Of a stretch of 64,000 nucleotides of DNA, positions 7,427 through 7,937 are shown in pieces. The notes under the pieces were generated by a model. The model was given only the letters and a program-made list of their open reading frames with translations, was not told the DNA's origin and ran no database searches. The stretch is from Escherichia phage dune, in the sequence record MN850636.1; one strand, written 5' to 3'. Numbering within the stretch: the first letter of the stretch is position 1; every line of letters begins with the position of its first letter. A program made the translations under genes and the position numbers.

Positions 7427-7669
7427 TTTTTTAGATTCTCCTAGTTTAAGGTAGTGAGCTTGTCGCCCCGTCTGATGCAAATACTATAAAAACCCGTTCA
7501 AAGAGTCAATAAAAATTTTTAAAATATTTTTGGCAAAAATGGAATGAAACGGGCGCGCACGACTACCACAAAACAGAACTACAATCAAGAATTATTTTTC
7601 AATCCGCTACAAATTTTTCTATTGACTTTTATTTTCAGATGTGGTAGCCTTGTGAGAAATGGCGACAGC

Positions 7670-7892
7670 CCCACCTACACCCACCTACCTGCACAATTCT
7701 AAAATGATTTTTCTTGCCCGACCTGAGCGGGGTCTGCACGTTTTGAAAATGAAAAAGCCCTTTGGAGATTACCTGCACAGTTTGAAAATGAATTTTCTCT
7801 TTGGAGTTCAAAATTTTCTCTACAGATTTCTATACAGAACTCTACCTGCACAATCCTGAAATAAAAAAGCCCTCCTTACCTGAAAAATTTAC
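7670..7892. repeat. Four direct repeats of about 27 bp (YACCTGCACARTTYKAAAATGA-like) plus CACCTAC mini-repeats
   Basis: Copies at about 7686-7713, 7732-7757, 7770-7797, 7844-7871. Confidence 0.55.
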
Positions 7893-7937
7893 CAGATAAG
7901 AAAGGCTTAGTCTATTGTGAATATTCTACAGAGTTTC

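Follow-up and report, generated by a model that had tools for sequence, protein, structure and literature searches.

A four-unit direct-repeat array conserved across Ounavirinae phages and its reading as putative protein-binding sites

The non-coding gap at 7427-7937 of a 64,000-nucleotide (nt) stretch of the genome of Escherichia phage dune (sequence record MN850636.1; this whole stretch is hereafter the window, and coordinates and strands refer to it unless a locus is named) was found to carry four co-oriented direct repeats, whose core sequence is kept in every phage lineage in which the locus was retrieved. These results suggest that the repeat units are cis-acting sites on double-stranded DNA for one putative sequence-specific protein of phage or host origin, a tentative reading to which we assign a probability of about 45%.

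The repeat array and its conservation

The window belongs to the genus Felixounavirus, and the 2 kilobases (kb) around the array match 627 phage records, the best of them Escherichia and Salmonella Felixounavirus at 92-94% identity. An initial annotation of the window had described four direct repeats at about 7686-7871, and all four were recovered there by a repeat search and a regular-expression search. The units all lie on the plus strand, and their 18-nt cores, TGCAC-N6-(G/T)AAAATGA, start at 7690, 7735, 7774 and 7847. The repeat search grouped them into family D2 (7686-7714, 7770-7798 and 7843-7871) and family D1 (7734-7767, 7773-7806 and 7846-7879). The consensus given in the initial annotation matched three times in the 64-kb window, against 0.01 matches expected from shuffled sequences. 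The full unit was longer than had been described, at about 38 nt (TACC-TGCAC-N6-AAAATGA-W5-C-N5-GA); the core is followed on its 3' side by a 5-base-pair (bp) A/T run, then by C and then, about 13 nt on, by a weaker GA element. The array is laid out as follows.

7686-7724, plus strand: unit 1 (T-type), core 7690-7707 TGCACAATTCTAAAATGA, tail TTTTTCTTGCCCGACC
7731-7767, plus strand: unit 2 (A-type), core 7735-7752 TGCACGTTTTGAAAATGA, tail AAAAGCCCTTTGGAG
7770-7806, plus strand: unit 3 (T-type), core 7774-7791 TGCACAGTTTGAAAATGA, tail ATTTTCTCTTTGGAG
7791-7830, plus strand: decayed half-unit (repeat family D4), a duplicated unit tail (AATTTTCTCTTTGGAGTTC / AATTTTCTCTACAGATTTC) without a TGCAC core
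7843-7879, plus strand: unit 4 (A-type), core 7847-7864 TGCACAATCCTGAAATAA

Successive units are spaced by 45 nt (units 1 to 2), 39 nt (units 2 to 3, which stand head to tail) and 73 nt (units 3 to 4), the last distance being long because the decayed half-unit sits between them. The motif was also counted over a whole genome, made up of the window and, for the remainder, positions 1-45 kb of phage Barry. The extended motif TGCA[CT]-N5-8-AAAT[GA]A-W3 occurred five times, with all copies on one strand, against 0.3 expected.

Every lineage retrieved, from Felixounavirus, Suspvirus, Mooglevirus and Kolesnikvirus, contained the array. In BLAST searches, the intergenic stretch alone matched 288 records and reached Suspvirus and Mooglevirus, and the Kolesnikvirus phages of Erwinia and Cronobacter were reached through the repeats only. 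The number of units and their spacing were distributed as follows.

Felixounavirus and SUSP2: four units, spacing 45/39/73 nt
SUSP1 and Mooglevirus: four units, spacing 45/41/75 nt
Divergent IMG/VR lineage L119: four units, spacing 45/39/77 nt
Kolesnikvirus: four units, spacing 39/37/37 nt
Variant L021: three units, spacing 45/75 nt

Across 35 units from nine lineages, TGCAC was invariant and AAA(A)TGA nearly so, and the 6-nt interval between them and the spacers between units were variable. Outside Kolesnikvirus, 4-6 of the 18 core positions varied, all of them in the N interval, and the spacers varied at 19 of 27 and 26 of 55 positions. Between the window and the Kolesnikvirus phage SunLIRen, the protein of the macro-domain gene beside the gap shared 36% amino-acid identity, and four-fold degenerate sites were 44% identical. 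The remainder of the gap could not be aligned between the window and Kolesnikvirus, for which BLAST aligned the array only. The invariance of the cores amid diverged spacers, a diverged macro-domain gene and an unalignable gap therefore indicates strong purifying selection on the cores. The tail of unit 1, TTTTTCTTGCCCGACC, recurs in Kolesnikvirus unit 2.

In two scans of IMG/VR, which returned mostly chance matches, and in a re-scan of the retrieved loci, the clusters among the matches listed occurred only in contigs of Ounavirinae size. The tandem motif was found in none of the Enterobacterales genomes in a scan of 185,579 species. Judged by these searches, the array is without a sequence relative outside Ounavirinae. 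A host or plasmid origin of the motif was also considered, and no meaningful match was found in 5,426 Escherichia coli genomes or in PLSDB plasmids.

Units 2 and 4 have A5 as the 5-bp run that follows AAAATGA, and units 1 and 3 have a T-rich run there (ATTTT or TTTTT); the same A5/T5 flip is present in other genera in a different unit order. In duplex DNA, it makes no difference which strand of an A-tract bears the A's; in RNA or in a peptide, the two forms differ strongly. Because A5 and T5 runs are equivalent in duplex DNA and not in RNA or peptide, this pattern argues that the constraint on the units acts at the level of double-stranded DNA.

For Felix O1-type phages, the searchable literature yielded no account of these repeats, of where transcription starts or of an origin. 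The only repeats that the Felix O1 genome paper lists are exact ones of 24 bp or more at other places, and the paper states that the temporal regulation of transcription is not known. The comparative Felixounavirus paper does not mention the array. Direct-repeat arrays of binding sites are a familiar kind of element, and this particular array appears not to have been described before.

A fifth copy in a promoter and the protein-binding reading

The one copy of the motif outside the array was found at a second locus.

12294-12358, minus strand: rIIB terminator (12358-12335), solitary unit and promoter (12330-12303)

The solitary unit, with TGCAC at 12317-12321 on the plus strand, lies directly past the rIIB terminator and falls in the -35/spacer region of the promoter TTGTAT-16-TATAAT, where the minus strand reads GTGCAG at -25 to -20. 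This promoter serves the gene at 12271-11723, whose transglycosylase-like, secreted product bears a signal peptide. The solitary copy is kept in Felixounavirus and in the Mooglevirus- or Suspvirus-type loci L008 and L029, with CTGCAC constant and the flanks differing. The Michonne-like locus L008 has the promoter sequence TTGAAA-16-TATAAT there (11 of 12 positions), and its spacer contains TGCAC. No wider class of promoters with a GTGCAG box was found; the rIIB-proximal promoter alone has GTGCAG. An operator would be expected beside a -35 hexamer. With the fifth site inside a promoter and the array at the border of a terminator and a promoter, we therefore infer that the putative binder would be a transcription regulator.

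The array itself lies among the following features of the gap.

7938-8723, minus strand: macro-domain gene (Pfam Macro, E = 1.5e-7)
7908-7867, minus strand: intrinsic terminator (17-pair stem, T-tail at 7866-7857) that ends the macro-domain gene operon
7628-7685 (58 nt), no strand assigned: variable segment, allele A, carrying CCCACCTAC twice as a mini-repeat
7622-7650, plus strand: candidate weak promoter, with TTGACT at 7622-7627, a 17-nt spacer and TGn-TAGCCT at 7642-7650
7584-7630 (47 nt), plus strand: block near-invariant in Felixounavirus, Suspvirus and Mooglevirus
7509-7481, minus strand: sigma-70 promoter of the downstream small-gene cluster, TTGACT-17-TAGTAT, with an A/T-rich stretch upstream at 7510-7535

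All genes around the array are on the minus strand, and their order is that of Felix O1: rIIA and rIIB, then further on the macro-domain gene, the gap and the run of small genes. The placement proposed in the initial annotation proved right, in that the gap does separate the macro-domain gene from the next minus-strand gene, whose ATG is at 7426. The early promoter that it expected in this gap was also located, as the promoter of the downstream cluster at 7509-7481, outside the repeats; this promoter occupies the same position in Michonne, UAB_Phi87 and SunLIRen and is kept in all four genera. As for the label "early", reverse-transcription PCR of Felix O1 showed that open reading frames (ORFs) 13, 16 and 20-22 peak at 5 min and ORFs 1, 3, 4, 6 and 10 at 25 min, which is broadly consistent with the label, but the fit to a temporal boundary at this place is loose.

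The terminator of the macro-domain gene works on the minus strand only, because its stem uses G-U pairs. Relatives have a terminator at the same place, with stems that differ in Mooglevirus, Kolesnikvirus and L021. The stretch AAATAAAAAAGCCC of unit 4 (an A-run plus GCCC) is the reverse complement of the T-tail and stem base, and the array therefore begins within this terminator. A G+C-rich hairpin followed by a T-run was found only at 7908-7867 (unit 4) and at 12358-12335 (solitary unit); units 1-3 have a T-run and no hairpin.

In the protein-binding reading, each site would span about 25-32 bp and consist of TGCAC, six variable bases, AAAATGA, a 5-bp A/T tract and a weaker downstream C/GA. 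The array stands directly past the terminator that closes the rIIA-to-macro unit, and the small-gene cluster has its first promoter about 180 bp further downstream. At the rIIB-proximal promoter, the protein could act as an operator-bound repressor or activator, and the four-site array could form a boundary element between two transcription units. Such a boundary might separate two temporal classes as a roadblock or insulator against read-through; it might also control antisense transcripts that start at the candidate plus-strand promoter, or store the regulator on high-affinity sites and so time its action. Binding sites for a regulator, as first suggested, remain the best reading of the repeats, and the binding and its effects are what we infer from the sequence.

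Several results weigh against this reading. A DNA-binding Pfam domain was found in none of the 10 neighbouring proteins, and no regulator is named in two annotated relatives. The recognition site is asymmetric. The spacing is out of phase with the helical repeat and shifts by 2-4 bp from genus to genus, which is unusual for cooperative arrays. The solitary fifth copy is absent from Kolesnikvirus, and in that genus the tail of a unit and the next core form the sigma-70-like sites TTGCCA-17-TAAAAT and TTGCCA-17-GAAAAT. Furthermore, the units may be a linear RNA motif on a plus-strand transcript.

Arrays of operators for phage repressors and activators are known from OR and OL of lambda and from P1, whose C1 operators are scattered and asymmetric. 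As in these systems, a site of about 18-25 bp is present in several copies at one or two genomic loci, and one of these copies falls on the -35/spacer region of a sigma-70 promoter. Unlike them, the array belongs to a lytic phage without a known repressor, its sites are asymmetric and 39-73 bp apart, and the four arrayed sites are clear of the nearby promoter at 7509-7481, lying 180-350 bp upstream of it.

Known consensus sites were compared with the units by hand. The spacing was off by 2 for sigma-54, and only one half-site was present for NtrC. The T4 MotA box, the sites of CRP, FNR, LexA, Fur, Fis, Lrp and PhoB, the RfaH ops element, Tus/Ter and Chi did not fit the invariant positions. For IHF, the minus-strand unit TTTCAATTTGTGCA resembles the lambda H' core, with the required CAA falling in the variable interval; no IHF site or DnaA box was found in any unit of the window when one mismatch was allowed. 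In Kolesnikvirus (SunLIRen, L003:1959-2080), the units start with (C/T)TATGCAC(A/G), one mismatch from the DnaA box TTATNCACA. These DnaA-like starts and the sigma-70-like junctions are both absent from the E. coli and Salmonella phages.

Phages of the Felix O1 type are classic tools for typing Salmonella and are often considered for therapy and biocontrol. The array is among the few non-coding elements under clear purifying selection throughout the subfamily, with essentially one locus per genome plus the promoter copy. It could be used as bait for the putative regulator or initiator, and deleting it would be a straightforward way to learn what keeps the delayed rIIA-to-macro unit apart from the early small-gene cluster.

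Alternative explanations

The units could instead be iterons for an initiator, or belong to an origin activated by transcription from the flanking promoters, which we regard as unlikely. A single-locus distribution suits a cis element needed once per genome, and the four co-oriented direct repeats lie in the longest non-coding gap of the region, with A/T-rich stretches (78% AT) at 7495-7545 and 7584-7640 and promoters on both flanks. In relatives, a G-rich non-template stretch directly past the plus-strand -35-like hexamer could favour an R-loop, and the Felix O1 genome paper names no replication origin for the phage. The nearby A/T-rich DNA at 7495-7545 ranks in the top 0.4% for 40-nt intervals but only in the top 10% for 100-nt intervals, and the least stable DNA of the window lies elsewhere, at 38237-38340 and in the terminal-repeat region. 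No Rep-like Pfam match was obtained among the ten flanking proteins, all of which except the macro-domain protein were of "unknown function" in PHROG. The window offers no DnaA box, IHF site or GATC cluster at the array, the dune allele is without the G-rich stretch, and the fifth site is located in a promoter. The replisome is T7-like, and T7 origins use promoters and are not known to use iterons.

Iteron origins contain at least three direct repeats, each about 17-22 bp long and evenly spaced, usually by two helical turns; four O-protein sites are present at lambda ori, and iterons are reported at T4 oriE. The array is similar to these in its four co-oriented direct repeats, its conserved core, its intergenic position and the A/T-rich DNA and promoters nearby. 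It differs from them in its irregular and long spacing (39-73 bp, against 39/37/37 nt in Kolesnikvirus), and neither an adjacent initiator gene nor an outstanding DNA-unwinding element was found. Sequence similarity to known iterons is limited to an 8-nt run, ACAAATTG, shared with the F-plasmid iteron, which we take to be a chance match.

Slightly less probable than an origin is a plus-strand non-coding RNA that would start at the candidate promoter 7622-7650 and carry four copies of UGCAC-N6-AAAAUGA. Such an RNA may soak up an RNA-binding factor in the manner of a sponge, or extend in antisense into the macro-domain gene from its 3' end. A clear plus-strand promoter in Kolesnikvirus, TTGACG-18-TATACT (10 of 12 positions), is directed into the array, the -35 hexamer and the block upstream of it are near-invariant in three genera, and no plus-strand terminator lies past the array. 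In dune, TTGACT at 7622-7627 is mirror-symmetric to the minus-strand promoter (inverted repeat I1). The -10 hexamer is weak in allele A (TAGCCT, 3 of 6 positions), so that the promoter scan missed this candidate, and it is unrecognisable in allele B. Compared with shuffled sequences, the fold z-score was -0.43 for the plus strand and -1.78 for the minus strand, the latter reflecting the terminator only. Alignment folding of seven lineages gave no supporting covariation on either strand (the covariation terms were positive) and no conserved structure, Rfam returned only chance matches (E > 1), and no transfer RNA (tRNA) or transfer-messenger RNA gene was found. By these tests, the array is not a structured RNA. 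Moreover, a flip between A5 and U5 would be drastic in RNA, and no plus-strand promoter was called at the fifth copy. Remnants of tRNA genes were likewise considered as a source of the array and rejected, no such gene having been found.

Tandem promoters for host RNA polymerase, one per unit, had also been suggested, and we consider them improbable. Two Kolesnikvirus unit junctions match 9-10 of 12 positions on the plus strand, UAB_Phi87 and Michonne each have one lineage-specific match within the array, and the junction of dune units 2 and 3 reads TTGGAG-16-GAAAAT (7 of 12 positions, read by eye). A promoter scan of 7660-7880 of dune found no sigma-70-like site overlapping the units on either strand, none in units 1-4 reaching the scan threshold, and the matches in relatives vary in strand and position. 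The invariant TGCAC would fall in the spacer of such promoters, polymerases could not fit side by side on units 37-45 bp apart, and the motif is absent from the other promoters of the genome. Phage T7 has three tandem early promoters, A1-A3. The array resembles these as a set of repeats that precedes an early gene cluster close to a genome end, and differs from them in that its units have no -35 and -10 hexamers at promoter spacing.

The units might also be neutral debris, that is, decayed duplicates of a cassette of terminator tail and promoter like the cassettes of about 100 nt between the small genes.

3838-3936, 4633-4731, 6306-6404, 6653-6751 and 7122-7220, with others at 1747, 2346, 2908 and 4152: cassettes of the small-gene cluster

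Two of the units, unit 4 and the solitary one, are fused with the T-tail of a terminator, the A-type units look like the 3' half and tail of a terminator, and the small-gene cluster is rich in repeated promoter and terminator cassettes. However, the cores are invariant over a distance at which four-fold degenerate sites have almost saturated (44% identity) and the non-coding flanks are unalignable, and copy number and order are kept in four genera. This conservation of the cores therefore set neutral duplication debris aside, and we give it very little weight. In T4-type phages, promoter-early stem-loop (PeSL) cassettes form modules of terminator and promoter between small early genes. The dune cassettes at 3838, 4633, 6306, 6653 and 7122 are similar to these, as is the construction of unit 4 and the solitary unit on terminator tails. 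In contrast to PeSL cassettes, units 1-3 have neither stem-loop nor promoter, and the core TGCAC...AAAATGA lies outside the repeated cassettes.

A site at the genome terminus or for packaging was rejected from the position of the physical end. The terminal repeat of UAB_Phi87 (608 bp, experimentally sequenced; 590 nt used as query) maps with 84% identity to 394-978 of the window, 6.7 kb away, which places the array about 7.3-7.5 kb from the inferred physical end. The array could be a cis-acting boundary for DNA entry, comparable to the injection stop signal (iss) of T5; we consider this idea as improbable as neutral debris. The T5 iss comprises 1.2-1.7 kb at 7.9% of the genome, within a 10-kb terminal repeat, and is full of inverted repeats and palindromes, with paired DnaA boxes (Davison, bioRxiv 10.1101/866236). 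Like the iss (Davison, bioRxiv 10.1101/866236), the array is a non-coding repeat block that has diverged less than the ORFs beside it. Its distance from the inferred physical end is about 8% of the genome length (T5: 7.9%), and it sits at the inner edge of a terminal small-gene cluster in which all genes point toward that end. Unlike the iss, it consists of about 190 bp of direct repeats, its units in the window contain no DnaA box, and the terminal repeat measures about 600 bp. Large inverted repeats were not found at the array, and two-step injection has never been reported for Felix O1-type phages. If the idea were true, myophages of the Felix O1 type would inject a host-takeover segment ahead of the remaining genome.

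A mini-array resembling clustered regularly interspaced short palindromic repeats (CRISPR) was considered as well and rejected; the period of 37-45 nt leaves 0-10 nt between units, and no CRISPR repeat family matched within the array.

A small repeat-containing protein encoded by the plus-strand ORF 7659-7859 is hardly credible. This ORF of 66 amino acids exists, some relatives have an annotated plus-strand coding sequence over the array (Michonne gp131, phi63_307_00143), and in Felixounavirus units 1-3 are in frame and read LHxxKM, two or three units being in frame in each genus. The shared frame of units 1-3 in dune results only from spacings (45 and 39) that are divisible by three; in other genera the frame is lost after one or two units, starts and lengths differ, and unit 4 is always out of frame. 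Variable sites are distributed 16:15:13 over the three codon positions in 11 Felixounavirus sequences (8:7:9 in the shared part), with no third-position excess. In addition, the invariant bases include third codon positions whereas whole codons vary, and no Shine-Dalgarno sequence lies at a suitable distance. The ORF had been called probably not coding, and the breaks in frame between genera and the even spread of variable sites bear this out: by these patterns, the array is not a gene. Annotators are warned that repeat-built ORFs such as this should not be called genes.

The variable segment and other features of the surroundings

The CACCTAC mini-repeat reported beside the array does exist, as CCCACCTAC at 7670-7678 and 7680-7688, but it belongs to one allele only and is not conserved. 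Many relatives carry the equally long allele B of the variable segment, which has a G-quadruplex-type motif, GGGGAGAGGGGGAGTAAGAGGGGGAGAGGGG, on the plus strand. Allele B was seen at L058:2107-2137, at L002:1699-1730 and in L126 and L119; the plus strand of dune is C-rich there instead. The G-rich strand thus switches between two alleles of 7628-7685 that are equal in length.

On the other side of the conserved promoter, the first gene and its 5' leader (7426-7466) are swapped for a different gene in many Felixounavirus loci (for example L013, L015, L058 and L060). The promoter and the array stay while this gene is exchanged, which therefore indicates cassette exchange at the promoter.

Within the small-gene cluster, the cassettes of about 100 nt contain a ribosome-binding site, a terminator hairpin and a promoter, and some are 99% identical to each other. 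Because of these repeated cassettes, ORFs 4238-4657 and 6405-6677 share the N-terminus MENLKMAI, and BLAST gives 5-7 places per record.

The macro-domain protein comprises 261 amino acids, and Pfam Macro covers residues 25-141 only, leaving about 110 C-terminal residues without a family match. The gene is labelled "phosphatase" in many records, including its PHROG match.

At the inferred physical genome end (394-978), two outward-facing gene clusters converge and GC skew changes sign nearby. At the array itself, no clear switch in GC or AT skew was seen. Eight contigs from metagenome 3300045988 (L018, L068, L081, L103, L250, L251, L258 and L270) and record MK482690 end in or near the array. 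These ends are probably due to assembly breakage at the repeats or to strain differences and are not true genome ends.

The most A/T-rich DNA of the window, at 38237-38340, is a divergent gap between minus-strand genes for replication and nucleotide metabolism and the plus-strand DNA polymerase gene. This segment is a more classical candidate for an origin or for strong divergent promoters.

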